Shown here one piece after another: positions 7,323 through 25,164 of a stretch of 64,000 nt of DNA (its first letter is position 1; every line of letters begins with the position of its first letter). Made by a program: the position numbers and the translations under genes. The stretch is from Candidatus Tepidifontimicrobium thermophilum (GTDB lineage: Bacteria; Sysuimicrobiota; Sysuimicrobiia; Sysuimicrobiales; Sysuimicrobiaceae), in contig JAVKHO010000004.1 of the NCBI GenBank assembly GCA_031459915.1, positions 64,001 through 128,000 of the forward strand, given 5' to 3'. The notes beneath the pieces are model-generated. The model did no database searches. It had not been told where the DNA came from and was given only the letters and a program-made list of their open reading frames with translations.

Positions 7323-9638
7323 CTACCGTCCCGCCCGCAGGGCGCGCCACACCCGCTCTGCGGTGAAGGGGAAGTCCAGGTGCCGCACCCCGAAGGGCTC
7401 CAGGGCGTCCAGCACCGCGTTGGCGATGGCGGGCGGTGCGCCGATGGTCCCCGCCTCACCCAGACCCTTCGCTCCCAGCGGGTTCAGGGGAGAGGGTGTC
7501 TCCAGGAACTCGCTGACGAGGGGAGGCGCGTGCACCGCCCGCGGGAGCCCGTACTCCGCCAGGCTGGACGCCAGGGGCTGTCCCTGGTCGTCGTACTCGA
7601 AGGCCTCGGTGAACGCCTGTCCCAGCGCCTGCACCACGCTGCCCGAAATCTGGCCTTCCGCCAGGAGGGGGTTGACGATGCGGCCCGCGTCGTCCACCGC
7701 CACCAGCTTTAACACCTTCACTTCCCCCGTCTCCGGGTCCACCTCCACCACCGCGCCGTACGCGCCGTAGGGGAACACCGGACGCGGGATGGCGAAGTAC
7801 CCCACCGCCTCCAGGCCCATCTCCAGATCCGGCGGCAAGCGGTGCGGCTGGTAGGCCGCGGAGGCCACGTCGCGCCAGGAGACTACGCGCTCGGGCACCC
7901 CCCGAACCCAGATCCGACCGTCCTGCCAGTCCAGGTCGTCGGGAGAAGCCTCCAGCAGGTGCGCGGCGATAAGCTTGGCCTTCGCCCGGATTTTCTCCGC
8001 GGCCACCACGATGGCGGAGCCTCCCAGGGTGGTGGACCGGCTCCCGAACGTGCCGATGCTGCGGCCCAGCAGGTTCGTATCGCCGTACTGCACCAGGACG
8101 TCGTCCGGGTGCACCTGTAACAGGTCCGCGGCGATCTGCGCGAAGGAGGTCTCGTGGCCCTGCCCGTGGGGCACGGAGCCCGTGCGGACCACCACCCGGC
8201 CCGTGGGCTCCACCACCACCGCGGCGCTCTCCCAGAGCTGGCTCGCGGCCCGCTCCACGTAGAACGCCACCCCCACTCCCACGAGCCGGCCGTTGGCCCG
8301 GGCGCGCTCCTGCTCCTCCCGCCAGCGGTCGTACTCCAGCAGCTCCCGCAGCCTTTCCAGGGCCCGCGGGTAGTCGCCGGAGTCGTAGACGAATCCCAGG
8401 GGGTTGCGGTACGGGAACGCGTCGGGTCGGACCAGGTGCCGCATCCGGAATGCCACGGGGTCCTCGTGGAGCTCCCGGGCCACCAGTTCCGCCATCCGCT
8501 CCACCAGGTAAGCGGCCTCGGGCCTTCCGGCACCCCGGTACGGACCCGTGGGCACCTTGTTGGTGGCCACGCCCAGCAAGACCACGTGCGCGTGCGGGAT
8601 GGCGTACGCGCCCGTCATGAGCATGGCGGTGTTCACGGGCGGGACGGGCGTGGAGGGATACAAGTAGGCACCCGCGTCCGCCAGTAGACGGGCCCGCAGC
8701 GCCACCATCCGGTTTCCCCGGACGGCCACCTCTACCTCCGCGACCATTCCTCGCCCCTGGTAGCTGGCCAGAAGGTTCTCCCGGCGATCCTCCACCCACT
8801 TGACCGGGCAGCCCAGCACCAGGGCCGCCCAGGCGGCCAGCACGGTCTCCGGAGAGACCCCGAACTTGCTCCCGAAAGCCCCTCCCACGTCGGGCACGAT
8901 GAAGCGGATGCGCTCCTCCGGCCGCCGCAGGATGCGGCTCAACTGCTCGCGCGGCCGGTGGGTGCCCTGGGCGGACGCCCACACCGTCAGCAGGTCGGAT
9001 CCCGGCTCGTAGACGGCGACCGCGCCCCGGGTCTCCATGGGTACCGCGGCCAAGCGGGGAATCCGGAACTTCTGGCGCACCACCCGGTCCGCACGGGCGA
9101 ACTCGCCGTCCGGGTCTCCTCCCTTGCCTTCCCACCGGAACAGGACGTTGTCCGGAAGCTGCTCGTGCAGCCGCACCGCCCCCGCCAGCGACTCCTCGGG
9201 ATCCACCACGGCGGGTAAGGGATCGTAGTCCACCTCCACCACGGCTGCCGCGTCCTCCGCGGCCGCGCGCGTCTCTGCCACCACTGCGGCCACGGGTTCG
9301 CCCACGTAGCGGACCCGGTCGGTGGCGAGGACGGGGTGGGGGACCTGTTCCACCCGCGTGCCTTCCACTCCGGCCAGCGCGTACTGCCCGAGCCTGCCCG
9401 CTAGGTCCCGGCCGGTGAACACCGCCACCACGCCGGGTGTCGCCCGTGCCGCCTCCACCCGGACCCCGAGGACCCGGGCGTGGGCGTAGGGACTGCGCAC
9501 CACCACCAGGTGCAGCATTCCGGGCAGCTTCAGGTCGTCCACGTACCGCGCCTGGCCCCGCAGGAAGCGGCCGTCTTCCTTGCGCCTCAGGGGACGGCCG
9601 ACCCACCCTCCCGCAGGCGGAGCGTGCTCAACCCTCAC
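7323..9638 (-). CDS. Xanthine dehydrogenase family molybdopterin-binding large subunit (CoxL/CutL-like, not form I)
   Basis: RKEDGRFLRGQARYVDD, DVGGAFGSK, PYRGAGRPEA, HGQGHETSFAQI, GAKGLGEAG. Confidence 0.9.
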   Translation of the reverse strand: MRVEHAPPAGGWVGRPLRRKEDGRFLRGQARYVDDLKLPGMLHLVVVRSPYAHARVLGVRVEAARATPGVVAVFTGRDLAGRLGQYALAGVEGTRVEQVPHPVLATDRVRYVGEPVAAVVAETRAAAEDAAAVVEVDYDPLPAVVDPEESLAGAVRLHEQLPDNVLFRWEGKGGDPDGEFARADRVVRQKFRIPRLAAVPMETRGAVAVYEPGSDLLTVWASAQGTHRPREQLSRILRRPEERIRFIVPDVGGAFGSKFGVSPETVLAAWAALVLGCPVKWVEDRRENLLASYQGRGMVAEVEVAVRGNRMVALRARLLADAGAYLYPSTPVPPVNTAMLMTGAYAIPHAHVVLLGVATNKVPTGPYRGAGRPEAAYLVERMAELVARELHEDPVAFRMRHLVRPDAFPYRNPLGFVYDSGDYPRALERLRELLEYDRWREEQERARANGRLVGVGVAFYVERAASQLWESAAVVVEPTGRVVVRTGSVPHGQGHETSFAQIAADLLQVHPDDVLVQYGDTNLLGRSIGTFGSRSTTLGGSAIVVAAEKIRAKAKLIAAHLLEASPDDLDWQDGRIWVRGVPERVVSWRDVASAAYQPHRLPPDLEMGLEAVGYFAIPRPVFPYGAYGAVVEVDPETGEVKVLKLVAVDDAGRIVNPLLAEGQISGSVVQALGQAFTEAFEYDDQGQPLASSLAEYGLPRAVHAPPLVSEFLETPSPLNPLGAKGLGEAGTIGAPPAIANAVLDALEPFGVRHLDFPFTAERVWRALRAGR

Positions 9639-9710: not shown

Positions 9711-10166
9711 TCAGCCGCGCCACGTGCAGGCCGGGCCCAGGAACACCGTCTCGTGCCGTCCCTGGGAGAAGTACTCCAGGAATGTGAGCTCGGAGTCCGG
9801 GTCCGCCAGGAGCTGGTGGATGTCTCCCTCCGCCACCCACACCACCGAGCCCGCGCGCAGGGGGAATTCGGCGTCCCCGATGCGGATGCGGCCGCGGCCG
9901 GCCAGTACGAGGAAGAAGTGTTCGGTTCCCCTGTGGAGGTGTACGGGGGAGGCCGAGCCAGGGGCCACGGTCACCACGTCCACCAGCAGGGAGCTGCCCG
10001 TGTTGGTGTGGTTGAGCAGGACACGCTTTCTCCGCCCGTCGTGCACGGATACGAGCTCAGGGACCTCCTCCAGGTGGAACACCTTGGAACCCGGACCCCG
10101 GCCCACCACCTGCTCGGCGTCCGCCAGCGCCTCGTGGGGCACGGCGGCCCGCTGGGTCTCCGCCAT
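9711..10166 (-). CDS. Cupin domain protein
   Basis: PVHLHRGTEHFF...G.G and EGDIHQL cupin motifs; AAAGGAGG RBS before ATG 10166. Confidence 0.8.
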   Translation of the reverse strand: MAETQRAAVPHEALADAEQVVGRGPGSKVFHLEEVPELVSVHDGRRKRVLLNHTNTGSSLLVDVVTVAPGSASPVHLHRGTEHFFLVLAGRGRIRIGDAEFPLRAGSVVWVAEGDIHQLLADPDSELTFLEYFSQGRHETVFLGPACTWRG

Positions 10167-10192
10167 CGCTACGGCCTCCTTTCCGTCCGTCC

Positions 10193-10585
10193 CTAGTGCC
10201 AGCGGGGATCTCCGGACCACTTGCCCAGCTTTGTGAGACAGGCCCGCGTGAACCCCCACTCCACCGCCCGCTCGTAGGTGGGCCGCTCCACCGCCGAAAT
10301 GTTGCCGATCTGCCACACCGTCTTCCAGGGGAGCAGGCCGAAGTGCTGGAACACCATGGCCACCTCGGGTCGCGGACCGCGGACCTGCTCGCCGTCCACC
10401 CACACCCTCCCTTCGTCCGGGGGCACCAGGCCCGCGAGGATCCGTAGCAGGGTGGTCTTCCCGCACCCGCTGGGCCCGATCACGCAGAGGAACTCGTTGG
10501 GCTGCACCTGCACCGAGCACGGCCCCAGCGCGCTGACGTCACCGAAACGCTTGGTCACACCCTCCACGACCATCTTCGCGGTCAT
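10193..10585 (-). pseudogene. Truncated TauB/SsuB-type ABC ATPase fused to an unrelated C-terminal fragment
   Basis: Walker A GPSGCGKTT and Q-loop MVFQHFGLLPWKTV are present; no LSGGQ signature, Walker B or H-loop; ends after 130 aa. Confidence 0.75.
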
Positions 10586-11667
10586 CCCGCGCCTCCGGAG
10601 CTCGCCCCCAGCTGCTCGGCCATCCAGTCCGCCACCAGGGGCCGGTACTTGTAGGGGATGTTGTTGCACACGTGGTTGCCCTCGGGGTACAGCACGAACT
10701 CCCCCCGGGGCGCCTCCCGCGCTACCCGCTCCGCGTCCTGCCAGGGGAACAGGGCGTCCTGCTGCCCGAACACCACCAACAGCGGCTGCTGCAGCCTCGG
10801 CAGCACCGGCCCCAGGTCCAGCTCCAGGGCCCGACGCCGTGCCTCCGAGTCGTCAGCCGCGCCCGCGTGGTACCGGAACGTCTCCCTCGTCAGGACCGGC
10901 AGCCGCTCCCACGCGGCCCCGAAGTTGTAGGGCCCTCCGATGGCGGCCACCGCCCGGATCCGCGGCTCAAACGCCGCGGCCCGGGGCGCGTAGTAGCCGC
11001 CCAGGCTGACCCCCACCGCCCCCACCCGGTCCAGGTCCAGGTCGAAGTTTGCCGACAGGTGGTCCAGCACCGCCCGCACCGCCGCCTCGTAGTCGGGCCG
11101 GATGCGGGTGTGGAAACCCGTCTCACCCTGGCCAGGGCCGTCCACGGATACCGTGGCCATCCCCCGCACCAGGAAGGTGTTCTCCCAGTGGAAGAACTCC
11201 TCTTTGGTGGAGTCCAGGCCCGGGATCAGCAGCACCACAGGCGGCCGCTGGCGGCCCTGGGGCCTGCGCAGGTTCGCGAACAGCATCGTGTCCTCGAAGG
11301 GGATCTCCAGACGGCGCGCGGTAGCGTCGAGGTGTCTGTGGGCCGCCCGGAGGGCCTCCACGGACCGCACCGTGGTCTCCCGGTACCGCTGAGGATCCAC
11401 CGTCCACACGAACTTCGCGAAGTGGTAGCACAAGGCCGCCCGCACCCACGCCTCGCCCGCGGTGATCCGCCGTCCCCGGGCCTCCGCCTCGCGGGCCAGC
11501 TCCGCGTGGACGTCTCCGGTCCGCACCCACGCCTCCAGCCACTCCTCCCAGCGCGTGATGGAAGCGGTCGCGCGGACGAAGTCGTTGTAGTCCACCCCCT
11601 GGGCGATCATCCGTGGGGCCCAGTTCTGCACCACCGCCTGAACCCTCGTGTCCCCCCGCCCGCTCAC
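10582..11667 (-). CDS. Alpha/beta hydrolase, 2,6-dihydroxypseudooxynicotine (DHPON) hydrolase-like
   Basis: GLDSTKEE, RGMAT..DGPGQGE, nucleophile GVSLGG, GNHVCNN; layout recalls the Arthrobacter DHPON hydrolase. Confidence 0.8.
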   Translation of the reverse strand: MSGRGDTRVQAVVQNWAPRMIAQGVDYNDFVRATASITRWEEWLEAWVRTGDVHAELAREAEARGRRITAGEAWVRAALCYHFAKFVWTVDPQRYRETTVRSVEALRAAHRHLDATARRLEIPFEDTMLFANLRRPQGRQRPPVVLLIPGLDSTKEEFFHWENTFLVRGMATVSVDGPGQGETGFHTRIRPDYEAAVRAVLDHLSANFDLDLDRVGAVGVSLGGYYAPRAAAFEPRIRAVAAIGGPYNFGAAWERLPVLTRETFRYHAGAADDSEARRRALELDLGPVLPRLQQPLLVVFGQQDALFPWQDAERVAREAPRGEFVLYPEGNHVCNNIPYKYRPLVADWMAEQLGASSGGAG

Positions 11668-12653
11668 GTCCGCACCTCCAGGCCCAGGGCCCGGGCCGCG
11701 TTGTCCCGCAAGACCCTGGCTTCCGCCTCCTCCCCCAGCTCTGCCCGGCGGACGAACTCCACCGGCTGCGCCAGTCCCATGTCGAAGGGGTAGTCGGACC
11801 CCAACACCACCTGCTCCGAGCCCACCCACTCCACCAGCTGCCTCAGCAGCACGGGGTCGTGGGTGACGGTGTCGTAGTAGAAGCGCCGCAGGCACACTTC
11901 CACGTCCTCCCGCAGTCTCGCCCGCGCCTTGGGTTGGAAGGTGTGGGCGTGGCGCAACCGGCCCCGCAGGGCGGGCAGAGCACCACCCCCGTGGGCCAGG
12001 ATGACCACAAGCCGCGGATGACGCTCCAGCACCCCGCTCATCACCAGGTGCCCGGCGGTCATGGCGGTCTCCACGGGGTTGCCGACCGTGTTCCACAGGT
12101 AGTACTCGTGCAGTTCGGGGATCCCGAACCCTCGGGTGGTGGGGTGCACGAACACGCCGAGTTTCAAGGCTTCTGCAGCCTCCCATACGGGCTCGAACGC
12201 ATCCTCCCCCAATAACCGGCCTCCGACCCTGGCGGTGACCTCCACGCCCACCAGCCCCGGCCGGCCCCGCACGTCCTCCAGCAACCGCGCGGCCTCCTCC
12301 GGAGCCTGGAGGGGGACCGCCCCGAACGCCCACACCCGGCCTGGGCGGCGCGCACAGACCCGGGACAGCCCCTCGTTCCACGCCTTGCAGACCTCCCGGG
12401 CCAGCCCCACGTCCTGCTCCTCGTACGGCAGCATCGAGACCCAGGGCGAGAGGATCACGGCGTCCACGCCTACCCGGTCCAAGTCCTCCAGGGTCGCCTC
12501 GGGGTCCGCCAGCGCCCCCACCGCGGAGAGAACCCGCTGCCCGCGCCACTCCACGACGTCGCGGTCGCCCTCCCGGACCCGCCGCGCCCGCCAGTCCCCT
12601 TCGCCCACCAGCTCGGGGACGACGACGTGGCAGTGGACGTCGACCGCGTTCAC
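11664..12653 (-). CDS. Amidohydrolase_2 family protein (ACMSD-like decarboxylase/hydratase)
   Basis: DVHCH, VFVHP, GNPVET, AHGGG, LGSDYPFDMG. Confidence 0.85.
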   Translation of the reverse strand: MNAVDVHCHVVVPELVGEGDWRARRVREGDRDVVEWRGQRVLSAVGALADPEATLEDLDRVGVDAVILSPWVSMLPYEEQDVGLAREVCKAWNEGLSRVCARRPGRVWAFGAVPLQAPEEAARLLEDVRGRPGLVGVEVTARVGGRLLGEDAFEPVWEAAEALKLGVFVHPTTRGFGIPELHEYYLWNTVGNPVETAMTAGHLVMSGVLERHPRLVVILAHGGGALPALRGRLRHAHTFQPKARARLREDVEVCLRRFYYDTVTHDPVLLRQLVEWVGSEQVVLGSDYPFDMGLAQPVEFVRRAELGEEAEARVLRDNAARALGLEVRT

Positions 12654-13240
12654 CGGCGACCTGCCACCCCCTTGGTGCCGGGCTTCAACCCCACAGCGGT
12701 GTCCGCCAGCACCTCGCCGTGCCGAATGCCCAGGGTTTTGATCCACCGCTGCTGCCCGAGGGTGAGGGCGACGAAGAAGCCCAGTTCCACGATTTCCGGA
12801 ACGGTGAACTGCTCATAGAGCTTCGCCCACAGGGCGTCGTCCGCGATCTCCGCGTTCCACACGATGGCACTGGTGTACCGCAACGCCACCTTCTCCCGCT
12901 CCGTGAAATGTTCGGACTCCTCAAAGTGCAGCAGCTCCTCGTACTTCTCCTCCGTCAGGCCCTTCCGTCCAGCCTGGACGGATCGCTGGACCCCTCAGTA
13001 CTCGCACTCGATGGACTTCGAGACGTAGACGCGACACAGCTCCTTGATGGAGTGGTCCAGCACCCCCTGCCGGAAGGTGAGCTCCCACGCCTGGCTGAAA
13101 GCCCGGATGACGTTGGGGCTGTGGGCCCGGATGGCCTGGCTTTCCGGCCTCGGGGTGCCCTCCCGCCGGGCGCGCTCCAGATACCCCAGAATCTCCGGGT
13201 CCTTTACGGTGTCAGGGTCTACGTACGGAATCCTCGGCAT
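12650..13240 (-). CDS. AhpD/carboxymuconolactone-decarboxylase-like selenoprotein (196 aa, Sec at TGA 12995-12997)
   Basis: Track ORFs 12995..13240 and 12650..12889 are one reading frame broken only by TGA in C-E-Y-TGA-G (CxxU); stem-loop starts 12 nt downstream. Confidence 0.8.
12955..12994 (-). promoter_or_regulatory. Bacterial SECIS-like hairpin
   Basis: Minus strand TGA-GGGGTCCAGCGA-TCCGTCC-AGGCT-GGACGGA-AGGGCCT: 7-bp perfect upper stem (12964-12982), G-containing apical loop, possible lower stem GGGTCC/GGGCCT. Confidence 0.7.
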
Positions 13241-13254
13241 CCTCCCACCTCCCG

Positions 13255-14430
13255 CTATCCCACACGGCGCAAGCCCCGGGGATACCCGTGCACAGGCTCT
13301 ACGCCGTCCTCCCTCAGCACCACCAGCTCCCCGGTCTGCACGCCGGCTCGGGCGTCCGGGGTCACCACGTTGGGCTGGATCACCAGGGCCATGCCGGGCC
13401 GCAGGATCAGCTCCGCGTCCTGCGGGTTGTCGAATCCCTCAGGCCCCAGCACAGGCGGCAGGTAGCCGCCTCCGTACCCGTGCACGAGGTCGTCATACAC
13501 CGTGAACCCTGCCCGTCGGATCCCCTCCAGCACCCGCAGGAGTTCCCCCGCGCGGATCCCCGGCCGCAGGACGCGCAGCGCGTGCTCAAACGCCTCCTCC
13601 GCCACCCGGTGCAGCTCGCGAAACAGGGGCGTCGGCTCTGCCCCCACCACAAACGTTCGCAGGAGCTGCCCCGCATAGCCCCAGAAGGCCGCGCTGATCT
13701 CACACACCACCACGTCCCCTACCCGCACCCGGCGGCCGGAGGGGTACTGCGCGGGGACGCACCGGTCAGGATCGGTCATGGAAGTGACGGAGAGGAAGTG
13801 GATGTGGGTGCTTCCGCCCAACGGCACGTACGCCCGCTCCACGACGTCCACCAGCTCGAACTCGCTCACCCCGGGGCGGAGGGCTGCCTCCAGGGCCCGT
13901 ACCGCGCGGTCGGTGAGCTCGGCCCCCGCCCGCAACCACGCGAGCTCCTCCTCCGACTTCACCAGCCGCAACGACACGTAGGAGGGGGTCAGGTCCACCA
14001 CCTGCCGCACGCGCGTGGCCAGGGGATGCCACGCAGAACCGGGCAGGGGTCCCACCACACCCACCCGCTGCTGTTCACCCCCTCGCCGGACCAGCTCCTC
14101 GGCCACGGTTCGGGCGGTTGCTGGCCCTGCCCAGACCACCTGGACGTCCGAGGCCACGGCGCGCCGGGCCGTAGGCACGTGGTTCCGGTACTGGACGAAC
14201 AGCTTCACGGCCTCCCCGGGGGCCCACACCACCGCTGCCTCCCGCGTCACCGGCCATCCGGTGAACCACTGGACGGCGTCGCCGCTGCCCGCATTCCCGT
14301 ACAGCACGAGCCGGTCCACCCCGCTCCGCTCCACCAGTTGCGCCAGCTGCGCCCGACGGCGGCGCACCTCGTCGTCGGAGAAAAGCGGGTAGCCATCCTC
14401 TGCCCACACTGCCCGCCAGGAGGACCCCAT
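13255..14430 (-). CDS. M24 (creatinase/prolidase-fold) hydrolase with non-canonical metal site
   Basis: Creatinase-like N-domain, LRLVKSEEEL, GYAGQLLRTF, HGYG, LVIQPN. Confidence 0.8.
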   Translation of the reverse strand: MGSSWRAVWAEDGYPLFSDDEVRRRRAQLAQLVERSGVDRLVLYGNAGSGDAVQWFTGWPVTREAAVVWAPGEAVKLFVQYRNHVPTARRAVASDVQVVWAGPATARTVAEELVRRGGEQQRVGVVGPLPGSAWHPLATRVRQVVDLTPSYVSLRLVKSEEELAWLRAGAELTDRAVRALEAALRPGVSEFELVDVVERAYVPLGGSTHIHFLSVTSMTDPDRCVPAQYPSGRRVRVGDVVVCEISAAFWGYAGQLLRTFVVGAEPTPLFRELHRVAEEAFEHALRVLRPGIRAGELLRVLEGIRRAGFTVYDDLVHGYGGGYLPPVLGPEGFDNPQDAELILRPGMALVIQPNVVTPDARAGVQTGELVVLREDGVEPVHGYPRGLRRVG

Positions 14431-14432
14431 CC

Positions 14433-15875
14433 CTAGCCGTCCGCGGGATTGAGCACCACGATCCGCAGGTCCGTCATCTCCTCGATGGCGTATCGGGGTC
14501 CCTCCCGGCCGATCCCGCTCCGCCGGATCCCACCGTAGGGCATAAGGTCCACGCGGAACCCCGACGTGTCGTTGACGATCACCCCGCCCATGCGGAGAGT
14601 CCGGGCCGCCTTCATGGCACGGTCCAGGTTCCGGGTGAACACCCCCGCCTGCAACCCGTACTCCGTGTCGTTGGCCTGCCGCAGGGCCTCCTCGAAGCTC
14701 GAGCAGGCCACCACGGACGCCACGGGCCCGAACACCTCCTGGCAGACCACCTTCATCTCCGGCCGCACGTCGGTCAGCACCGTGGCCGGGTAGAGGACCC
14801 CCTGCCGCGGCCCGCCCAGCGCGCGCCGGGCGCCTCCCTGCACCGCTTCCTCCACCCAGGCCTCCACGCGCCGCGCGTCGTCCTCAGAGATCAGGGGCCC
14901 GATGTCCGTGTCGGGATCCTCGGGGTCGCCCAGCTTCATGGCCCGCGCGGCCGCCACGAACTTCTCGAGAAACGGCTCGTAGGCCGGCTCCTCCACGTAG
15001 ATGCGCTGCACGGAGATGCAGAACTGACCCGCGTAGAGATACGCGAACCGGGCCAGCAGCTGCGCCGCCTGGTCCAGGTTCGCGTCCTGGGCGACGATGT
15101 TCGGGGAGTTGTTCCCCAGCTCCAGGATCACCCGCCGCAGGCCTGTGGCGGCCTTGATGCGCTCCCCCACCTCGGGGCTGCCGGTGAAGGTGTACAGGGC
15201 GATCCCGGGGTGACGCAGCAGGGCCTCGCCCACGGTCCGCCCGCCGCCGACGACCACGTTGAGGTACCCCGGGGGAAGCCCGGCCTCTTCCAGGAGCTGG
15301 GCCAGCATCAGGCTCGTGAGGGGCGTGTAGGTGGCCGGTTTCAGGACGACGGCGTTCCCTGCGGCCAGGGCGGGCCCCACCTTGTGCGCCACCAGGTTCA
15401 GGGGGAAGTTGAAGGGGGAGATGGCGCACACCACACCTACTGGAACCCGGAGGGTGAAAGCCAGGCGTCCTTCGCCGCCCGGGGCGGCTTCCACGGGCAC
15501 CTGCTCCCCGTGGATCCGCTTGGCCTCCTCCCCGCTGAGGGAAATGGTCTGGAGCGCGCGGTCCACTTCCACCCGTGCGTACTTCAGGGGTTTGCCGGCC
15601 TCCCGGGCGATGGTCAGCGCGAACTCCTCGCGCCGCTGGCTCAACAGGTCCGCGGCGCGGCGCAGGATCTCGAACCGTCGGTACGGGGAAAGCGGACGCT
15701 CCTCCAGGGCCCGCTGCGCCGCCTGCACCGCCTCGTCCACGAGGGCCTCGTCCGCCTCCACCACCTCCGCCAGGACCTCCTGCCGGTACTTGTGCAGCAC
15801 CGGCACGGTACGCGGGCCGTCGCGCCACCTGCCGTCGATGTACAAGCCCCATCGGGGTACTGTCACCGTGGCCAC
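14433..15875 (-). CDS. Aldehyde dehydrogenase
   Basis: ISPFNFP, FTGS, LELGNN (Glu), GQFCIS (Cys), EVFGP, PYGG..SG.GREG; GAGGAGG RBS. Confidence 0.92.
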   Translation of the reverse strand: MATVTVPRWGLYIDGRWRDGPRTVPVLHKYRQEVLAEVVEADEALVDEAVQAAQRALEERPLSPYRRFEILRRAADLLSQRREEFALTIAREAGKPLKYARVEVDRALQTISLSGEEAKRIHGEQVPVEAAPGGEGRLAFTLRVPVGVVCAISPFNFPLNLVAHKVGPALAAGNAVVLKPATYTPLTSLMLAQLLEEAGLPPGYLNVVVGGGRTVGEALLRHPGIALYTFTGSPEVGERIKAATGLRRVILELGNNSPNIVAQDANLDQAAQLLARFAYLYAGQFCISVQRIYVEEPAYEPFLEKFVAAARAMKLGDPEDPDTDIGPLISEDDARRVEAWVEEAVQGGARRALGGPRQGVLYPATVLTDVRPEMKVVCQEVFGPVASVVACSSFEEALRQANDTEYGLQAGVFTRNLDRAMKAARTLRMGGVIVNDTSGFRVDLMPYGGIRRSGIGREGPRYAIEEMTDLRIVVLNPADG

Positions 15876-15882
15876 GTCCTCC

Positions 15883-16920
15883 TCACCTCCCCTCGGCTCC
15901 CTCTCCCTCACCTTCCCGGACGTAGATCCGGGGTGCCGAAGCGTTCACCCGGAGCTGGAAGACGTCCGGCCGGTTGTAGTGGCCCGCGAAGTCGTGGCGG
16001 ACCTTCTCTGCCACGCACTCGTTCAGGTCCGCCTGGAACACCAGGACGCCCTCCTCCGCGCCCATGGGGCCCGCCACCACAGATCCGCCCGGGCCCACAA
16101 TGTTGGAGCCTCCCGTGCTGCGGTCGTCCCACAGGATCGCCCGGTCCTCCTCCGTGTACACCAGCAGCTCCCGCATCTCGTCCGTCAGGGTCCCGCACGC
16201 GTTCACCACGAACGCTTTGGTGGCGAGTGCCAGGGCCCGGCCCACCACGAGGGCCCGTTCCGGGCACGACATTCCCCGTTTCGGGAACCGGTTCGGCCAG
16301 CTGACGGCCAGCACGTGCGGGTACTCGGCCATGAGGGCGAACACCGCCAGCGGGTTGGAGCTCTCCCCACAGATCAACCCGCCCACGCGGCCGAAGTCCG
16401 TGGGGAAGGTCCTCAGGGTGTCCCCGAACCCGCCGGTGTGCACCAGACGCTCCCCCACGGTGGGGACGAGCTTCCGGTGCTTGCCGAGGAGCGTCCCGTC
16501 GGGGGCGATGAACAGCTGCGTGTTGTACAGGGTCCCGAACGTGCCCGGCCGACGCTCGCACAGGCCCATGATCACGTACACCCCGGCCTCCCGGGCGGAC
16601 TCGCACAGGGCCTCGGTGGTCCGGCTGGGAATCTCCACGGAGTTCAGGAACAGCCGTGTGGCCAGCTCGCCGCTCCTGGGGTCGGTGGCGGGGTAGAAGT
16701 GGTACCACAAGGGATGGCCCGGGATGAACCCCTCGGGGAAAACCACGAGCTTCGCGCCCCGGCGCCCGGCTTCCAGGATCCACTCGCAGGCACGCTCCGT
16801 GGTGCGCTCGCGGTTCAGGAACACCGGAGCTGCCTGCACCGCGGCCAGCTTCACCCGCGGGAGGCGGTCACCACCCCCCGGCTCGGCCTCCACCACGCTC
16901 TCCAGCTCCACCAGACGCAT
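15883..16920 (-). CDS. Nitrilase / carbon-nitrogen hydrolase
   Basis: E-K-C triad in VFPEG, HRKLVPT, GLICGE; DFAGHYNRPDVF nitrilase tail. Confidence 0.9.
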   Translation of the reverse strand: MRLVELESVVEAEPGGGDRLPRVKLAAVQAAPVFLNRERTTERACEWILEAGRRGAKLVVFPEGFIPGHPLWYHFYPATDPRSGELATRLFLNSVEIPSRTTEALCESAREAGVYVIMGLCERRPGTFGTLYNTQLFIAPDGTLLGKHRKLVPTVGERLVHTGGFGDTLRTFPTDFGRVGGLICGESSNPLAVFALMAEYPHVLAVSWPNRFPKRGMSCPERALVVGRALALATKAFVVNACGTLTDEMRELLVYTEEDRAILWDDRSTGGSNIVGPGGSVVAGPMGAEEGVLVFQADLNECVAEKVRHDFAGHYNRPDVFQLRVNASAPRIYVREGEGEGAEGR

Positions 16921-16933
16921 CTCCGCCTCCCGT

Positions 16934-17647
16934 TCACGGTTGCTCCCCGCTCAAACCGACCACCACCCGTCCGAGTCCTGCAAGCTCGAACTCCACGGAT
17001 CGGTCCGCAGGGTCCAGGGACAGGGGAGGGATCACGGACCCGCAGATGACCAAGTCTCCGGCCCGCAGACGCTCCCCCACGGAGGCCAGCACCCGCGCCA
17101 TCTCCCCCAGCACGTCCACCACCCGCCCCGGAAAAGCCTCCAGGTCTTCCACCCCCGCGGACTCCCCGCCGTTGCGGAACACCCGTCCCACCGTGCCCGC
17201 CAGGCTGCCCGTGAAGGGCACGGTCCGCATGTCCCCGACGACCGCGTATCGGTGGAAGATGTTTCCGGCCAGCACCGCCTCCAGGTCCTCCTCGGGTGCG
17301 CGGTCTGGGTCGACCAGCTCGATGGCGGGCGCCACCCCGGTCACCGCGGCGGCCACCGCCTCCGGCGAGCTGTCGGGCAGCACGTCCTGTCCCAGCCGCA
17401 CCGCCACCTCCGGTTCTGCCACCGGCCGGCGCCACCCTCGCACGGACACGGTAACACCGGAGGGCAGCACCGTCCGGTCGGTGAGGAAGCCCGCCAGAAG
17501 GTGGGGAAGCCCGAGTCGCTGCTTCGCCTGCGAAGAACCGAAGGCGGCTTTCCAGCCCAAAGGCCTTGCCCCCGACCCCACCAGCTCCCGCCTCTTTTCC
17601 AGCAGCCGCTGGAGGCCGCTGCGCACCGCGGGATGGACCTCCGTCAC
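16934..17647 (-). CDS. Fumarylacetoacetate hydrolase family / 2-keto-4-pentenoate hydratase-like protein
   Basis: GWKAAF, AEPEVAV, PAIELVD, LRAGDLVICGS. Confidence 0.75.
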   Translation of the reverse strand: MTEVHPAVRSGLQRLLEKRRELVGSGARPLGWKAAFGSSQAKQRLGLPHLLAGFLTDRTVLPSGVTVSVRGWRRPVAEPEVAVRLGQDVLPDSSPEAVAAAVTGVAPAIELVDPDRAPEEDLEAVLAGNIFHRYAVVGDMRTVPFTGSLAGTVGRVFRNGGESAGVEDLEAFPGRVVDVLGEMARVLASVGERLRAGDLVICGSVIPPLSLDPADRSVEFELAGLGRVVVGLSGEQP

Positions 17648-17660
17648 CTTGCACCTCCGG

Positions 17661-18062
17661 CTAGGTCCGCTCCGGAGCCACCTCGTAACCCGAGGCCTCC
17701 AGGGAGCCCGCTCCGATCCAGCCCCAGACCAGCACCGCGTCCTCTGGGCCGGTGTTCACGAAGCCGTGCCAGCCGCCGCGGGGGATGTACACCACGTCCC
17801 CTTCTGCGGCGGGCTCGCGGCCCGCGTCGGTGTAGATCTCGCCCCGCCCCTTCAGCACCACGAAGAACTCGTCGCAGTTGCGGTGCAGGTGCCGTTCGTG
17901 CCGGGCGCCCGGCCGGAACACCGTCCAGCCCAGGGTGAAGTCCTTCGCCCCCGCGGTCGCCTCGTCCACCAGGAACCGCACCACCATGTCCACCCAGCCA
18001 TCCTCCCGCGCCAGGCCTCCGCGCGGCGCCACCTTCTCCACGTGGGTCCGGTACAGCTTCAC
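17661..18062 (-). CDS. Cupin domain protein
   Basis: HERHLHRNCDEFF...G.G, PRGGWHGFVN; GTG start overlaps upstream stop. Confidence 0.82.
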   Translation of the reverse strand: MKLYRTHVEKVAPRGGLAREDGWVDMVVRFLVDEATAGAKDFTLGWTVFRPGARHERHLHRNCDEFFVVLKGRGEIYTDAGREPAAEGDVVYIPRGGWHGFVNTGPEDAVLVWGWIGAGSLEASGYEVAPERT

Positions 18063-18946
18063 GCTCCTCCACCTCCCAGCTTGCGGTAGACCCGGTGCGT
18101 GGCCACGAAGTCCAGGCGGTCGAGCCCCAGGCCCCGGCAGGCGTTCATCATCTCGTTGGCCGCCGCGGCCAGGGGCACCGGGCTGCCCAGCCTGCGCGCC
18201 AGGTCCAGGACCAGCAGCATGTCCTTCTGCTGCAGGTTCACGTCCGCCAGCGGGGTCTCCGGCATCTTCCCCTCCAGGATGAAGGGGCCACGGTAGGCCA
18301 GCACCGGGGAGGCCGCCACGCTGTTCAGGATCGCCTCCACCGCCACCGCGCGGTCCACCCCGGCCTTCTCCGCCAGCGCCACTGCCTCGCCGAAGGCGAT
18401 GACCTCCACCATGAGCAGCAGGTTCACGGCCAGCTTCATGGCGCACGCCGTACCGTTGGGCCCCACGTAGAGCACCCTGGGGCCGATGGCGAGGAGCACG
18501 GGCCGGACCCGCTCGTACACCCGCGGGTCCCCGCCCACCATCAAGGACGCCTTTCCGTCCCGTACCGTGGGCGGCGCCCCGGAGATGGGGGCGTCGAGCA
18601 TGAACCGGCCTGCCCTGTGGAATTCCTCGGCCACGGCGCGGCTCGTGTCGGGGTCGATGGTGCTCATGTCCACGTAGACGCCTCCCGGCGGCAGCCCGTG
18701 CAGGACGCCTTTCGGTCCGAGGGCTACCTCCCGCACCGCCTGGCCGTCGGTCACGATGCTGAACACCACCTCGCTCTGCTCCGCCACCGCGCGGGGACTG
18801 CTGGCCCACCGCATGCCCGCCTCCACCAGGGGCTGGGCTTTTGACTGCGTGCGGTTCCAGCCCACCACGGAGTAACCTGCCTGCAGCAGGCGCGGCACGA
18901 TCACCGCCCCCATGGCCCCCAGTCCGACAAACCCTACGCGCTCCAT
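18059..18946 (-). CDS. NAD(P)-dependent beta-hydroxyacid dehydrogenase (3-hydroxyisobutyrate/tartronate semialdehyde reductase family)
   Basis: GFVGLGAMG, DMSTI, LDAPISG, MKLAVN. Confidence 0.88.
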   Translation of the reverse strand: MERVGFVGLGAMGAVIVPRLLQAGYSVVGWNRTQSKAQPLVEAGMRWASSPRAVAEQSEVVFSIVTDGQAVREVALGPKGVLHGLPPGGVYVDMSTIDPDTSRAVAEEFHRAGRFMLDAPISGAPPTVRDGKASLMVGGDPRVYERVRPVLLAIGPRVLYVGPNGTACAMKLAVNLLLMVEVIAFGEAVALAEKAGVDRAVAVEAILNSVAASPVLAYRGPFILEGKMPETPLADVNLQQKDMLLVLDLARRLGSPVPLAAAANEMMNACRGLGLDRLDFVATHRVYRKLGGGGA

Positions 18947-18969: not shown

Positions 18970-20133
18970 TCAGCGCCCGAAGTCCAAAAGGGCCAGCGGC
19001 TCCTCCACCCACGCCGCCAGGGTTTCCAGGAAACGGGCCGCCCGGGCGCCGTCCAGGACCCGGTGGTCGCACGCGAGCCCCAGGCTCAAAGTCGGGCGCA
19101 CCACGGGCCGGCCCTCCTCCGCCACCACCCGGTCTGCCAGCCGTCCCACGCTGAGGATGGCCGCCTGCGGCGCGTTCACCACGGCCAGGAACCGGTCCAC
19201 CCCGTACATGCCGAGGTTCGAGATCGTGAACGTCCCGCCGTCCACGTCCTCCGGGCGCAGCCGGCCCGCACGGGCACGGTCCACGAGCTCCGCGCGGCGC
19301 TGCGCGATCCGCTCCACAGGTAGCTCGTCGGCGCGATGCACCACGGGCACCACCAGCCCGTGTTCCGTGGCCACCGCGATCCCCACGTTGACGTCCGGGA
19401 GACGCCGGATCCGGCCGTCCTCCCAGCGCGCGTTGACCTCCGGGTGAGCTCGCAGCGCCGTGGCTACCAGCTTCACCAACAGGTCGGTGTAAGTCAGCTC
19501 GACCTGCAGGCGCTGCCGCAGGGCCTGGTGCCAGGCCACGAGCCGGTCCGCCCGTACGTCCCGCTGGAGGAAGAAGTGGGGGACGGTGCTCCAGGCCCGC
19601 GCGGTGCGCTCCGCCATGAGCTTCCACACGTGCGGGAGCTCGGAGGCGGGGGCGGCCTCAGTCAGCCGCTGTAAGTCCGAGGCGAGGATGGCGCCCCCGG
19701 GGCCCGATCCCTGGACCGACCGCAGGTCCACTCCCATCTCTCGGGCGAGCCGGCGGGCTTTGGGAGAGGCCCGGGGCCTCACGGGTGCCGGCTCCGCCAC
19801 CGTCGGCGGCCCGAGGACCTCCTCCGTGGACACGGCTGCAGCCGCCGCTGCGGGCGCACTCACCGGCGCGGCCGGCAGCTCGGAGGGTTCCTCCCCGGGG
19901 AGGAGGATCCAGCCGATCACCTGGCCCACGGGGACTTCGTCTCCCTCGCGAGCCAGCACCCGCGCCAGGACGCCGGAGGCGGGGGACTCGATCTCCACGT
20001 TGGCCTTGTCGGTCTCCACCTCCAGCAGCGGCTCGCCCTGCCGGACTTCCTCGCCCTCCGAGCGCCACCACCGCAGGACTTTGCCCGTTTCCTGGGCCAT
20101 GCCCAGGGCGGGCATGATCACCTCCCTCGGCAC
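18970..20133 (-). CDS. Dihydrolipoamide acyltransferase E2
   Basis: Lipoyl VETDKAN, E3-binding ASPKARRLA..GSGPGG, catalytic DHRVLDG. Confidence 0.92.
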   Translation of the reverse strand: MPREVIMPALGMAQETGKVLRWWRSEGEEVRQGEPLLEVETDKANVEIESPASGVLARVLAREGDEVPVGQVIGWILLPGEEPSELPAAPVSAPAAAAAAVSTEEVLGPPTVAEPAPVRPRASPKARRLAREMGVDLRSVQGSGPGGAILASDLQRLTEAAPASELPHVWKLMAERTARAWSTVPHFFLQRDVRADRLVAWHQALRQRLQVELTYTDLLVKLVATALRAHPEVNARWEDGRIRRLPDVNVGIAVATEHGLVVPVVHRADELPVERIAQRRAELVDRARAGRLRPEDVDGGTFTISNLGMYGVDRFLAVVNAPQAAILSVGRLADRVVAEEGRPVVRPTLSLGLACDHRVLDGARAARFLETLAAWVEEPLALLDFGR

Positions 20134-20143: not shown

Positions 20144-21481
20144 TCAGGGACGTATGCCTTCTACCGCCGCGGACGCCACCACCGCCTCCAGGGGCGGGGT
20201 CGTGCGGTTCAGCTGCGACTGCACCTCCCGGGTGGTGGGAAGCGGCCCGTCCACGGTCCAGTACCGGGTGCCCGCCACCAGCAGCGTCTCCGCCGGGAAG
20301 CGGGTGATCACCTCGCAGCCGTCCTTGGTCACCACCAGCTGCTCCTCGATGCGGGCCGCGGACCACCCGTCCCGGGCCGGCCAGAAGGTCTCCAGGGCGA
20401 ATACCATCCCCTCCTCGATGACCTCCGGGTGGTCGAAGGACACCAGGCGGCTGAAGATGGGTTTCTCCCAGATCGAGAGCCCTACCCCGTGGCCGTACTG
20501 AAGGGCGAAGGCGGCTTCCTCGTTGGCAAACCCGAACTCCTCCGCCCTGGGCCACACCTTCACCACGTCCGCGGTGGTCACCCCCGGCCTGATGAGGCTG
20601 ATGGCCGCGTCCAGGTAGTCCCGGCAGCGCTTGTAGGCGTCCACCATGGCCGGGGAGGCGCTCCCCACCACGAAGGTGCGGTAGTAACAGGTCCGGTAGC
20701 CGTTGAAGCTGTGGAGGATGTCAAAGTACACGGGGTCCCCGGGCCGCAGCACGCGGTCCGTGTACACGTGCGGGTGCGGATTGCACCGCTCCCCGCTGAT
20801 GGCGTTGACGCCCTCCACGTGCTCGGAGCCCAGGTCGTAGAGGATCTTGGCCACCAGCCCCACGCACTCGTTCTCCCGTACGCCCGGGCGCAGGAACTTG
20901 TACAGTTCCTCGTACGCCGCGTCCACCATCATGCAGGCGGTCGCCAGCAGGGTGATCTCGTCCTGGGTCTTGATCTTGCGGGCCTCCTGCATGAGGGGCT
21001 GGCCGTCCACCACCCGCAACCCCTCCTCCTGCAGGGCGAACAGCACGGGCGGCTCCACCACGTCCACGCCCACGGGTTCCCGGTGCAGCCCGCGGGCCTC
21101 CAGCTCCACCCGGATCTTGCGGGCCACGTCCCTGGCCCGCTCGGGGTAGGCGCCCCGGAGGGTGGAGATCCCCGCCCTCGACCGCTCGCCCAGCCACGGG
21201 CAGTACAGCTGGTGGTGGCGCGCCGCGGAGCCGAAGTCCCACAGGAGAGGCTCGTCGTCCTGCGGCAGCAGGCAGAAGCGCACCAGCTTGTCCATGGCCC
21301 AGGTGCCGATGTGGGTGGCGGTGATGTACCGGATGTTGTTCATGTCGAAACACAGCAGGGAGCCCAGCTCGGACTGCTTCAGCAGCCCCTTGACCCGTGC
21401 CAGCCGCTCCCGGCGCAGGCGCTCGTAATCCACTCGCGCCTCCCAGTCCACCCCCATGAGGCCGTACGTCTTGATTCCCAT
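20144..21481 (-). CDS. M24 (Xaa-Pro peptidase-fold) hydrolase
   Basis: ARKIKTQDEI, FDIL...GYRTCYYRTF, GHGVGL, FALET, ARIEE. Confidence 0.82.
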   Translation of the reverse strand: MGIKTYGLMGVDWEARVDYERLRRERLARVKGLLKQSELGSLLCFDMNNIRYITATHIGTWAMDKLVRFCLLPQDDEPLLWDFGSAARHHQLYCPWLGERSRAGISTLRGAYPERARDVARKIRVELEARGLHREPVGVDVVEPPVLFALQEEGLRVVDGQPLMQEARKIKTQDEITLLATACMMVDAAYEELYKFLRPGVRENECVGLVAKILYDLGSEHVEGVNAISGERCNPHPHVYTDRVLRPGDPVYFDILHSFNGYRTCYYRTFVVGSASPAMVDAYKRCRDYLDAAISLIRPGVTTADVVKVWPRAEEFGFANEEAAFALQYGHGVGLSIWEKPIFSRLVSFDHPEVIEEGMVFALETFWPARDGWSAARIEEQLVVTKDGCEVITRFPAETLLVAGTRYWTVDGPLPTTREVQSQLNRTTPPLEAVVASAAVEGIRP

Positions 21482-21508
21482 CGCCCGCACCTCCTTTCCA
21501 CGCCCGGC

Positions 21509-22534
21509 CTAGTTCCGGCCACAGAGCTCCCGCGCCACCGACGCCACCTGCTCCGGGGTGGGCACCGTCTGGTCCTCCAGGACCGGCGAGAACGGGACCG
21601 GCACGTCCAGGGCCCCGACCCGGCGCACAGGGGCCTCCAGGTCGTAAAAGGCCTCCTCCGCGATGGTCGCCGCCAGCTCCGCGGTGACCCCGTACCGGCG
21701 GTGCCCCTCGTCCACCACCACCACCCTTCCCGTCTTCCGCGCGCTCCGCACCAGGGTCTCCACGTCCAGGGGGAAGATCGTACGGGGGTCCACCACCTCT
21801 GCGGAGATCCCGTCCTGCTCCAGCAGCTCGGCGGCCTCCAGGGCCACGTACACCATGCTGCTGGTGGCCACCAGGGTGACGTCCCGCCCCGGCCGCTTCA
21901 CGTCCGCCACCCCGAAGGGGATGGTGTACTCCTCCTCCGGGACCGGACCCTTGACCTGGTACATCATCTTGTCCTCGAAGAACAGCACCGGGTTGTCGTC
22001 ACGGATGGCGGTCTTCAGCAGGCCCTTGGCGTCGTAAGGGGTGGAGGGGACCGCTACCTTCAAACCCGGGATGTGGGCGAACCAGGCGTGCAGGCTCTGG
22101 CTGTGTTGCGCCGCGGAACGCCGGGTGGCCCCCAGGGTGGTTCGGATCACCAGCGGGACTTTCAGCTTGCCGCCGGACATGTAGTGCACCTTGGCCGCCT
22201 GGTTCACGATCTGGTCCATAGCCAGGGTCAGGAAGTCCCCGAACATGATGTCCACCACGGGGCGCATGCCGGTCATGGCGGCACCGACCGCGATCCCCAC
22301 GAAGCCCGCCTCGGAGATGGGGGTATCGATCACCCGCTGCGGCCCGAACTCGTCCACGAGTCCTGAAAGGACCTTAAAGGGGGTGCCGGCTTCTGCCACG
22401 TCCTCGCCCAGGAGGAACACCCGGGGGTCCCGGCGCATCTCCTCGGCCAACGCCTCTCGGATCGCCTGGGCCAGGGTGATCTCCCGGACCGTACCGACTG
22501 CGGGCCCGCGCGCCGCCGCGCTAGGCGTAGACAT
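21509..22534 (-). CDS. TPP-dependent 2-oxoacid/acetoin dehydrogenase E1 beta
   Basis: GEDVA, DTPISEAG, AQHSQS, DNPVLFFE. Confidence 0.92.
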   Translation of the reverse strand: MSTPSAAARGPAVGTVREITLAQAIREALAEEMRRDPRVFLLGEDVAEAGTPFKVLSGLVDEFGPQRVIDTPISEAGFVGIAVGAAMTGMRPVVDIMFGDFLTLAMDQIVNQAAKVHYMSGGKLKVPLVIRTTLGATRRSAAQHSQSLHAWFAHIPGLKVAVPSTPYDAKGLLKTAIRDDNPVLFFEDKMMYQVKGPVPEEEYTIPFGVADVKRPGRDVTLVATSSMVYVALEAAELLEQDGISAEVVDPRTIFPLDVETLVRSARKTGRVVVVDEGHRRYGVTAELAATIAEEAFYDLEAPVRRVGALDVPVPFSPVLEDQTVPTPEQVASVARELCGRN

Positions 22535-24437: not shown

Positions 24438-24440
24438 GTC

Positions 24441-25163: not shown

Positions 25164-25164
25164 G

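Follow-up and report, generated by a model that had tools for sequence, protein, structure and literature searches.

A predicted AhpD/CMD-fold selenoprotein with Arg at the relay-His position, encoded inside a catabolic operon

Insertion of selenocysteine (Sec) in bacteria relies on SelB and Sec-tRNA acting at a hairpin located 3' of the UGA codon. Among enzymes of the AhpD fold, Bmp8 is a reductive debrominase in which the His three residues past the second Cys is catalytic. Selenoproteins of the AhpD-like (COG2128) or CMD-domain (PF02627, "AhpD-like 2") type bearing a CxxU motif have been predicted in the Sargasso Sea, in GOS and in genome surveys (PMC1088965, PMC2398784, PMC1794560, PMC13188914), which agrees with an earlier note on the present DNA that Sec-containing AhpD-like proteins had already been predicted; the cited passages assign no activity to any of these AhpD-like selenoproteins and link none to a catabolic module. 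In the sections cited here, the relay His of AhpD-like peroxidases is described as invariant and essential (PMC3141380), and a lipoyl precedent is given in which electrons run from NADH through Lpd, DlaT and AhpD to AhpC (PMC12028322). Our literature searches on selenoproteins with CMD and operon, on selenoprotein pseudogenes, on CMD within pyridine clusters and on the signature peptide of the subfamily described below returned nothing relevant. Nor did the published survey supplements that were searched contain its signature peptides, and members may already be listed in BSepDB.

The window, that is, the whole stretch of 64,000 nucleotides analysed, carries on its minus strand a gene for an AhpD/CMD-fold protein at 13240-12650, read as an open reading frame of 196 codons (196 aa). 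It starts with an ATG at 13240, preceded at 7 nt by a GGAGG ribosome-binding site (13248..13252), and ends with a TGA at 12652-12650 that overlaps the start of the downstream amidohydrolase gene as GTGA (12653-12650). An in-frame TGA occupies codon 82 (12997-12995, minus strand), at the second Cys of the AhpD-type CxxC, in the context SKSIECEY-TGA-GVQRSVQAGRK; the first residue of the resulting CxxU, Cys79, is encoded at 13004..13006 of the same strand, and the active-site motif reads E67-x11-C79-E-Y81-U82-G-V-Q85-R86-S87. The span and frame that the earlier note had given, running through the TGA to a stop overlapping the next start, were right; the strand had been left unstated, and a plus-strand frame across 12650-13240 is not the gene. 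As had been anticipated, gene callers do split or mistranslate it.

We hold it nearly certain, from sequence comparison, that codon 82 is read as Sec, the SelB-Sec-tRNA complex binding the hairpin downstream and inserting Sec. All 80 of the nearest genome loci keep the TGA. At this column 108 of 120 protein hits show Cys and 11 show W, and there is no TGG among 170 DNA loci; every one of the 11 W-labelled hits carries the SECIS-encoded peptide, and in these entries a gene caller probably translated the TGA as Trp. Sequencing error does not account for the TGA, because contigs of 4/4 runs, from four studies, show no other letter there (three of these contigs are near-identical and possibly the source of the window DNA). 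The host genome contains selA, selB, selC and selD, all scoring over curated cut-offs and clustered on contig C16 (4772-10929). A second tRNA-Sec proposed by ARAGORN (C5:39873-39964) was discarded, being absent from the Rfam RF01852 matches and apparently overlapping a protein start. Relative to related loci, dN/dS ranges from 0.05 to 0.25 on the 5' side of the UGA (10 loci) and from 0.07 to 0.24 on the 3' side (computable for 9 of the 10), values that show, at the level of codon substitutions, purifying selection on both halves. No ATG, GTG or TTG falls within codons 83-100 in 41/90 TGA loci, and the TGA loci share no conserved restart after the UGA. As for the distribution of selA, it was found in 48/50 TGA genomes and also in 50/60 relatives and 7/9 Cys-form genomes, the last count being the reason why it was dropped as a marker separating the two forms. 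A contig from an RNA library matches 12728-13047 without difference, a kind of match that cannot show transcription, strand or polarity.

The hairpin TCCGTCC-AGGCT-GGACGGA (12982-12964, minus strand) follows the TGA after a 12-nt spacer, with the perfect 7-bp stem and AGGCU loop reported before, or with eight pairs if an A-U pair closes a GGC loop. It agrees with the bacterial SECIS model as given in the cited part of PMC13188914, which asks for a loop of 3-9 nt, a stem of 4-16 bp, a G within the first two loop positions, a distance of 16-37 nt from the UGA and an energy of at most -7.5 kcal/mol; here the loop starts 19-20 nt past the UGA and the energy is -11.7 kcal/mol. Folding energy alone is weak evidence: over 71 nt it is not significant (z = -0.77; 48/200 shuffles as good) and was dropped as an argument, and the better value in a 27-nt window (z = -3.2; 2/200 shuffles) comes from a window centred by choice on the hairpin. 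The strong evidence is comparative pairing. The 6-bp core of the stem is paired in 82/82 distinct TGA genes versus 0/74 distinct Cys genes, two-sided compensatory changes are present among the TGA genes, and the synonymous positions in the hairpin are nearly fixed. Thus, the 196-aa CxxU selenoprotein with a SECIS that had been proposed as hidden at this locus was supported by every sequence-based test run, and no absence of Sec machinery, no TGG codon at the site and no TGC or TGT in the runs was found.

PF02627 (CMD family) scores 29.8 bits against a gathering cut-off of 23, and the structure predicted for the Cys-read sequence (pLDDT 87.9) resembles AhpD-like structures at Z 15-17; in this model the chain adopts the all-helical AhpD fold, catalytic hairpin included. 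Residues E67, C79 and Y81 of the relay and both positions of the CxxU/CxxC are kept in 170/170 loci. The distal relay-His position, four residues past the second Cys, is occupied by Arg in 168/170 loci and by His in none; in our gene it is Arg86 (12983..12985, minus strand), aligned to His55 of PA0269 and to His137 of M. tuberculosis AhpD (PMC3141380, in the part cited). Judging from the alignments, Arg86 is not an adaptation to Sec, because the Cys forms share it. Gln85, three residues past the second Cys, is present in 169/170 loci, and over 40 positions of the family are invariant, the majority of them polar, which suggests a defined substrate pocket. None of the NCBIfam models reaches its curated cut-off for this subfamily (bits/cut-off: NF053654 58.4/310, TIGR01926 23.4/81.8, TIGR04169 19.1/120, NF041047 16.1/110). 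In a tree built quickly from a subsample of 86 rows (10/83 branches starred, outgroups unreliable), the Sec forms are placed amid the Cys ones and some proteins labelled as Cys fall within the Sec group; we claim no order of events from it.

All genes of the surrounding cluster lie on the minus strand. Directly upstream of the selenoprotein gene is an M24-fold enzyme (M24a, 13255..14430; PF00557), preceded by an aldehyde dehydrogenase, a nitrilase-fold hydrolase, an FAH-fold enzyme and a cupin (14433..18080; profile matches), a lipoyl-domain E2 acyltransferase (18970..20133; PF00364, PF02817, PF00198 and a lipoyl motif), a DddP-like M24-fold enzyme (M24b, 20144..21490) between E2 and E1beta, the E1beta and E1alpha of a 2-oxoacid/acetoin-dehydrogenase-like complex (21509..23534), and a beta-hydroxyacid dehydrogenase, a GntR/FCD regulator and a fused TRAP permease (23547..27063). 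Downstream are an amidohydrolase-2 enzyme (11664..12653; PF04909) with ACMSD-type decarboxylases as nearest solved relatives, an alpha/beta hydrolase (10582..11667) whose start overlaps the upstream stop as GTGA and whose nearest solved relative is 2,6-dihydroxypseudooxynicotine hydrolase (2jbw, E 1e-49), and a CoxL-type molybdenum hydroxylase large subunit (7323..9638). The best hits of these enzymes point to the breakdown of N-heteroaromatic or hydroxyaromatic compounds, none of them reaching a family cut-off. No E3 motif was found in the cluster, the only convincing Lpd-type motif hit being on contig C5; the cluster showed no AhpC gene, and a peroxiredoxin motif scan of the genome gave only noise. 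A scan of 9000-28500 revealed no promoter-like site, and terminator-like sites occurred at chance level.

At first we read this neighbourhood as not conserved beyond the genus, a reading revised after module genes were found beside homologues elsewhere. An uncharacterised module (E1alpha/E1beta/E2 without E3, an M24-fold enzyme, the amidohydrolase and CoxL) turns up again, with its genes reordered, next to Sec as well as Cys homologues in Actinomycetota and Chloroflexota. In G366, G100, G104 and G109, at least three close relatives of cluster genes are found no more than about 17 kb from the family gene, in differing orders; the last three genomes show no E2 within their 20 kb flanks. E1beta is directly upstream of the family gene on the same strand in four loci (L129, L152, L156, L163) and within 1.5 kb of it in three others (L238, L239, L244). 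In an evenly drawn phylum sample the gene was present in 14/401 genomes, six of the 14 having a cluster-gene relative (at least 40% identity) within 1.5 kb. Relatives of M24b (53-98% identity, E <= 1e-100) occur in 42 of 52 genomes carrying the selenoprotein gene, and M24b is far commoner than that gene (102 vs 5 of 294 genomes; 36 vs 9 intact of 60). In the flanks covered, close relatives of cluster genes appear at only 11 of the 94 loci of at least 6 kb, and 83 are without the module; most copies in Binatia and Rokubacteria adjoin other genes (glyoxalase, a distant amidohydrolase, MurJ, adenylate cyclase), and a divergent LysR gene adjoins 26 Cys loci. The placement inside a catabolic operon claimed earlier is correct and holds beyond the genus, with a role that looks accessory. 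The selenoprotein step is dispensable to the module, many occurrences of which lack the gene.

The same-genus genome G004 (95% complete) illustrates the loss of the Sec trait and then of the gene, in an operon that is otherwise retained. No selA, selB, selD, true tRNA-Sec or FdhA was found in it; it keeps the operon in order, although the nitrilase was not found there, and its selenoprotein copy is a pseudogene with deletions of 1 nt and 143 nt, the larger of which took out C69, C79 and the UGA. Read from its ATG, this upstream copy ends early at a TAA, and the amidohydrolase, whose GTGA overlap is also present in G004, stays whole. The remnant has a dN/dS of 0.20, no higher than that of its neighbours, and the case is that of a single genome as represented by its metagenome assembly. 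The order selenoprotein gene to amidohydrolase gene was seen only in the host's genus; the overlap itself is real, and the proposed influence of selenium supply on the gene coupled to it downstream is not supported.

The best explanation, to which we give a probability of roughly 0.5 on sequence evidence, is that the protein serves the uncharacterised module around it as an accessory redox enzyme of the thiol/selenol kind, its substrate and activity being putative. By analogy with the fold's known members, the Sec82 selenolate would probably attack an oxidised substrate, be it a peroxide, a disulfide or an intermediate of the pathway in oxidised form, and Cys79 would resolve the product to a selenenylsulfide; Arg86 with Gln85 may hold the anionic nucleophile or the substrate instead of serving a proton relay. 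More tentatively, the dihydrolipoyl arm of the cluster's E2, a candidate electron donor, might re-reduce the selenenylsulfide, as DlaT does for M. tuberculosis AhpD, a step that would also give the E3-less complex an electron outlet. A broader proposal, which we regard as unlikely, is that the His-less, Arg-bearing subfamily provides a widespread thiamine/lipoyl cleavage complex lacking E3 with its electron outlet, electrons passing from dihydrolipoyl-E2 through Cys79/Sec82 to be spent on a specific intermediate or by-product of an undescribed catabolic route. If true, this would be a selenoenzyme integrated into carbon catabolism, and one that a lineage drops instead of reverting it to Cys upon loss of selenium use.

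In rival readings the TGA is a true stop, a Trp codon or an error, and the locus a pair of small genes, a pseudogene or a case of code reassignment. Such readings could draw on the W in protein hits, on codon 84 being a possible start in 40/90 TGA loci and on four TGA-bearing assemblies in which selA was not found (G061, G065, G003, G024); they are hardly credible given the absence of TGG, the SECIS peptide in the W hits, a tRNA-Trp(CCA) that is the only tRNA-Trp in the genome, TGA terminating the selenoprotein gene itself and neighbouring genes, a hairpin that tracks the TGA and the agreement among runs, and in G001 the missing selA and selB are explained by a contig ending inside the tRNA-Sec gene. 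It is also very improbable that the protein is a non-redox decarboxylase or tautomerase of the CMD fold using Sec or Cys as acid/base or covalent nucleophile: Pfam does assign the CMD family, and decarboxylase-like and hydrolase-like enzymes are among the neighbours, but both CxxU/CxxC positions are kept throughout, true gamma-CMDs are described without CxxC (PMC3141380, in the part cited) and small gamma-CMD structures match weakly (Z 3-5).

Within redox readings, the protein could instead be a general stress peroxidase or thiol-disulfide reductase hitch-hiking in catabolic islands and fed by thioredoxin or small thiols. The 83 loci without the module, the 26 with a LysR neighbour and the weak peroxidase or adaptor activities reported for characterised fold members in the cited part of PMC3141380 fit this idea, which we consider somewhat doubtful, since a shuffled gene set recurs beside the gene in three phyla, the relay His held to be invariant and essential in that source is absent, and the invariant polar positions may form a specific pocket. 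A committed, substrate-specific reductive step in the manner of Bmp8 appears improbable. Bmp8 is the best profile match among solved structures and a joint best fold match, and the gene's coupled position within the operon also fits; against this, G004 keeps its operon despite the broken copy, three genomes (G008, G010, G011) have the E1/E2/M24b/CoxL part without the gene, and Gln stands where Bmp8 has its catalytic His.

As a re-annotation the result is sound but ordinary, CxxU AhpD/CMD selenoproteins having been predicted since 2005. What is added is the replacement of the relay His by Arg, the recurring module link and the decayed copy in a Sec-less genome of the same genus. The Sec clade, spread, by record title, over at least six phyla, is nearly absent from protein collections because gene callers split or mistranslate the gene. 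A handle on function is offered by the altered active site, by the Actinomycetota Cys twins, which are easier to express, and by the recurring partner module, which points to lipoyl-E2 as a specific donor candidate.

Compared with known systems, the subfamily shares its superfamily with the YciW-related (seleno)protein family NF053654, a (seleno)protein by name and the best NCBIfam hit for 70/70 aligned members, yet it is not that family, because its 58.4 bits lie far under the cut-off. With PA0269 of P. aeruginosa (2O4D/2IJC; Z 15.6) and M. tuberculosis AhpD (1GU9) it has in common the helical hairpin and the Glu/Cys/Tyr/Cys-or-Sec relay (E67, C79, Y81, U82); it differs in the Arg at their His55/His137, in an identity of about 25% and in a longer chain of the 190-aa class. 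Bmp8 (6OHI/6OHJ) belongs to the same 190-aa fold class and has the CxxC (family-profile E 4.6e-11, Z 16.9), but identity is 15-16%, the His after its CxxC is Gln here and no halogenase context is present. The gamma-carboxymuconolactone decarboxylase of the PcaC type is described as short and without CxxC (PMC3141380, in the part cited), in contrast to the 196-aa CxxU protein. The predicted CxxU AhpD/CMD selenoproteins, in their published descriptions as far as cited here, share the fold, Sec at the second position, a SECIS 3' of the UGA and Cys homologues; of three published sequences compared, two keep a His 3-4 residues past Sec, whereas the one from Rubrobacter, like our protein, is without it.

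The gene lies on the minus strand at 13240-12650, where an ATG at 13240, with GGAGG 7 nt before it, opens a frame that hits a TGA at codon 82 (12997-12995) and, if read through, yields a product of 196 aa ending at the TGA stop at 12652-12650. The earlier note had claimed that the frame stays open to a stop overlapping the next start and that gene callers would split it; indeed, the 196-aa frame shares a GTGA with the start of the amidohydrolase gene, whose own stop overlaps the following start in the same way, and a plain ORF caller returns only an 81-aa stub. The same note had named a sequencing error, seen as TGC or TGT in reads, as grounds for dropping the idea. TGA and hairpin were unaltered in contigs of 4/4 public runs from 4 studies. 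Three of these are nearly identical and possibly the origin of the window DNA; the fourth has 3 differences in 458 nt.

The hairpin announced 12 nt past the TGA, a 7-bp stem with an AGGCU loop, was found as described (TCCGTCC-AGGCT-GGACGGA, 12982-12964, minus strand); it can be extended to 8 bp by an A-U pair, leaving a GGC loop, and agrees with the bacterial SECIS model as published in PMC13188914. Its folding energy, taken alone, is unremarkable. After removal of duplicates, the 6-bp core (+14 to +19 with +25 to +30) was fully paired in 82/82 TGA genes vs 0/74 Cys genes, with compensatory changes from C-G to U-A in eight and from U-A to C-G in two, and the outer seventh pair was kept in only 39 of the 82. 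The covariation score exceeded those of 500/500 shuffles and of every slid control, as a score from 24 hand-picked, related sequences that is not to be read as a probability. At codons 87, 88, 90, 91 and 92, the commonest codon accounts for 87-100% of sequences; for 79 further degenerate positions the median is 52%. In L246 and L248, two TGA genes that are more distant, another stem, closed by a GUG loop, stands in the same place.

Homologues had been expected to show Cys or TGA at this column, and the DNA loci bore this out: all 80 top-ranking genome loci out of 215 have TGA at codon 82, a search seeded with a Cys homologue gave 80 loci carrying TGC or TGT, and TGG was found in none of the genome loci of either search. 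In the 120 best protein matches out of 5030, column 82 holds Cys in 108, Trp in 11 (P0004-P0007, P0012, P0013, P0026-P0028, P0030 and P0085) and a gap in one. As the hairpin-encoded peptide of the S-V-Q-A-G-R type occurs in 11/11 Trp entries and in only 2/108 Cys entries, the Trp entries are most likely TGA genes whose TGA was translated as Trp, a reading taken from the peptide at the protein level. Through this peptide, the SECIS makes Sec genes recognisable in protein sequences. The dN/dS ratio is about 0.1 both before and after the TGA, and no restart codon past it is conserved among the homologue loci. One TGA-form locus, L123 (G219:C221), whose similarity ends a few codons past the TGA and which lacks the hairpin in a genome with selA, is either a truncated copy or a misassembly.

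The genes selA, selB, selC and selD, which the earlier note proposed to look for, all scored over their cut-offs in the host genome (96% complete) and are grouped on contig C16 at 4772-10929: selA 559 bits (cut-off 268), selB 367 (242), tRNA-Sec 81 (47) and selD 385 (125). The selD gene (C16:10899) itself has an in-frame TGA with a downstream hairpin, and a loose genome scan gave two frames interrupted by TGA, apparently formate dehydrogenase alpha subunits (C16:11688 and C23:184001), also with downstream hairpins; one formate dehydrogenase operon adjoins the sel cluster. A second tRNA-Sec proposed by ARAGORN (C5:39873-39964) was rejected, being without Rfam support and overlapping an apparent protein start. 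The selA gene was found in 48/50 TGA genomes (50 of the 80 were searched), but it is frequent in these lineages regardless (50/60 relatives, 7/9 Cys-form genomes); the tallies of this analysis include the unpublished genomes G078, G080 and G023 and, in the survey of 294 genomes for the M24 gene, G119, G199, G269, G289 and G342, all of which affect only the counts. Sec insertion at codon 82 is near certain, and the selenoprotein call is correct, well supported and of a known kind.

Within the genus, G006 combines the Sec genes with an intact TGA gene. In G001 the gene is likewise intact and selD is present, and the missing selA and selB are explained by a contig that ends inside tRNA-Sec; G003, at 72% completeness, is uninformative. 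In G004 (95% complete, no contamination), no selA, selB, selD, true tRNA-Sec or FdhA was found; the operon order is kept except for the nitrilase, and the neighbours have no internal stops. Its AhpD-like copy bears a 1-nt deletion and a 143-nt deletion that took out C69, C79 and the UGA. The 5' end of this copy is altered, the invariant W138 and Q164 are changed, and it stops early from its own ATG; its dN/dS is not raised as yet. A remnant of the SECIS persists, and the ancestor was therefore the Sec form. The amidohydrolase gene persists behind this prematurely terminating copy, which speaks against the suggestion that selenium controls the downstream gene. For decay that followed loss of the Sec trait, the subfamily offers one clear case, G004, a metagenome assembly whose deletions are known from the assembly alone. 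That selenoproteins are lost together with the Sec trait has been described before (PMC1794560). G007 (96% complete) holds only remnants of selB, selD and selC, the last a degenerate tRNA-Sec (on C64 and C20, with no selA found), lacks the gene and the amidohydrolase and has other cluster genes fragmented too; judged by these remnants, its Sec trait appears caught in decay.

On the same strand, the gene is preceded by a TRAP permease, GntR, a hydroxyacid dehydrogenase, E1alpha, E1beta, a DddP-like M24 enzyme, E2, a cupin, a FAH-fold enzyme, a nitrilase, an aldehyde dehydrogenase and a second M24 enzyme, and followed by an ACMSD-like amidohydrolase, a hydrolase nearest to 2,6-dihydroxypseudooxynicotine hydrolase, a cupin and CoxL; past CoxL come putative lactate-utilisation subunit genes and methylcitrate-cycle genes. 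No E3 motif was found inside the cluster. Encoded between E1beta and E2 of this E3-less dehydrogenase-like complex (18970-23534, minus strand), the DddP-like M24 enzyme is highly conserved, with 77-87% identity in several phyla. Immediately upstream of the cluster there is a tmRNA gene (28166-28522, minus strand), with a tRNA-Ile gene (44610-44686, plus strand) further on. A collapsed ABC transporter stands at 10193-10560 (minus strand), where the start of an ATP-binding subunit is fused to the apparent end of a later gene. The corresponding matches in G007 are separated by about 2.2 kb that holds ATPase-, permease- and binding-protein-like frames, and the host genome seems to have a deletion here.

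A relative of a cluster gene (at least 40% identity) occurs in the flanks of only 11/94 loci of at least 6 kb, the remaining homologues adjoining varied catabolic, transport or housekeeping genes. Four genomes (G366, G100, G104 and G109), from a set of seven with the gene in fetched regions and picked as promising, each have at least three cluster genes within about 17 kb in shuffled order, and in four Cys loci the gene directly upstream is E1beta. When one phylum was sampled evenly, the gene was present in 14/401 genomes, six of them with a cluster-gene relative within 1.5 kb, which was E1beta in three. The DddP-like M24 gene is much commoner than the selenoprotein gene (102 vs 5 of 294 genomes; 36 vs 9 of 60), which makes the selenoprotein optional within the module. 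A second context recurs, with a LysR regulator beside the gene in 26 Cys-form loci (25 directly upstream and divergent), and a bicupin directly follows the gene in 10 Cys-form loci; L167, L166, L126 and L132 are among the loci with this context.

The protein passes the Pfam CMD cut-off, no NCBIfam model reaches its own (the best, a YciW-related (seleno)protein family, scores 58 vs 310), and the predicted model (pLDDT 87.9, Sec modelled as Cys) matches 2PRR (Z 17.3), Deinococcus radiodurans AhpD (17.2), Bmp8 (16.9) and PA0269 (15.6). It is thus a CMD superfamily member and a bacterial selenoprotein, expected by analogy to work like an AhpD-fold thiol redox enzyme. Given this fold and the fixed Cys/Sec pair, the redox cycle would quite probably run through a Cys79-Sec82 selenenylsulfide, and the same pair makes non-redox catalysis improbable. 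For the biological role we favour an accessory reductase of the module, at a probability of about 0.5. The varied neighbours of most homologues would suit a stress peroxidase that merely hitch-hikes with the cluster, an unlikely reading beside the recurring cluster genes; a committed pathway step of the Bmp8 kind, for which the fold match speaks, is less likely still, the gene being optional. As an accessory reductase, the protein would likeliest receive its electrons from the dihydrolipoyl arm of E2, a proposal drawn from the analogous Lpd-DlaT-AhpD route (PMC12028322) and the repeated E1beta adjacency; against it counts that in G100, G104 and G109 the search around the gene turned up no E2.

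AhpD-like and CMD-domain CxxU selenoproteins were counted in Sargasso Sea data (27 and 4; PMC1088965) and GOS data (299 and 70; PMC2398784) and appear in a table of a 2026 review (PMC13188914). Searches for this subfamily's signature peptides gave no match in supplements (including those of PMC1088965 and PMC2398784 and part of that of PMC13326102) or in full-text literature, a scope that stops short of BSepDB entries and subscription papers. The Sec call itself is of a known type; the subfamily has a variant active site and is repeatedly linked to an orphan catabolic module. Sister AhpD-fold selenoproteins at about 30% identity (L100-L105, in family f4 genomes) share CxxUxxxR, in the motif CxYUSxVRS, with their own different conserved hairpin, and many further weak matches in that family also have one in-frame TGA. 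In Mycobacterium tuberculosis AhpD it is the second Cys that attacks, and Sec needs no base to be ionised at neutral pH. The relay of PA0269 consists of Glu36, Cys48, Tyr50, Cys51 and His55, the His being termed invariant and essential (PMC3141380). Four of the five correspond to E67, C79, Y81 and U82 of our protein, whereas the relay His is replaced by Arg86 (Arg in 168/170 loci, His in none) and the position of the Bmp8 His is occupied by Gln85. Since the Cys forms have the same Arg, Arg86 is a subfamily trait that is not tied to Sec use. The protein is not classed with the His-relay AhpD peroxidases.
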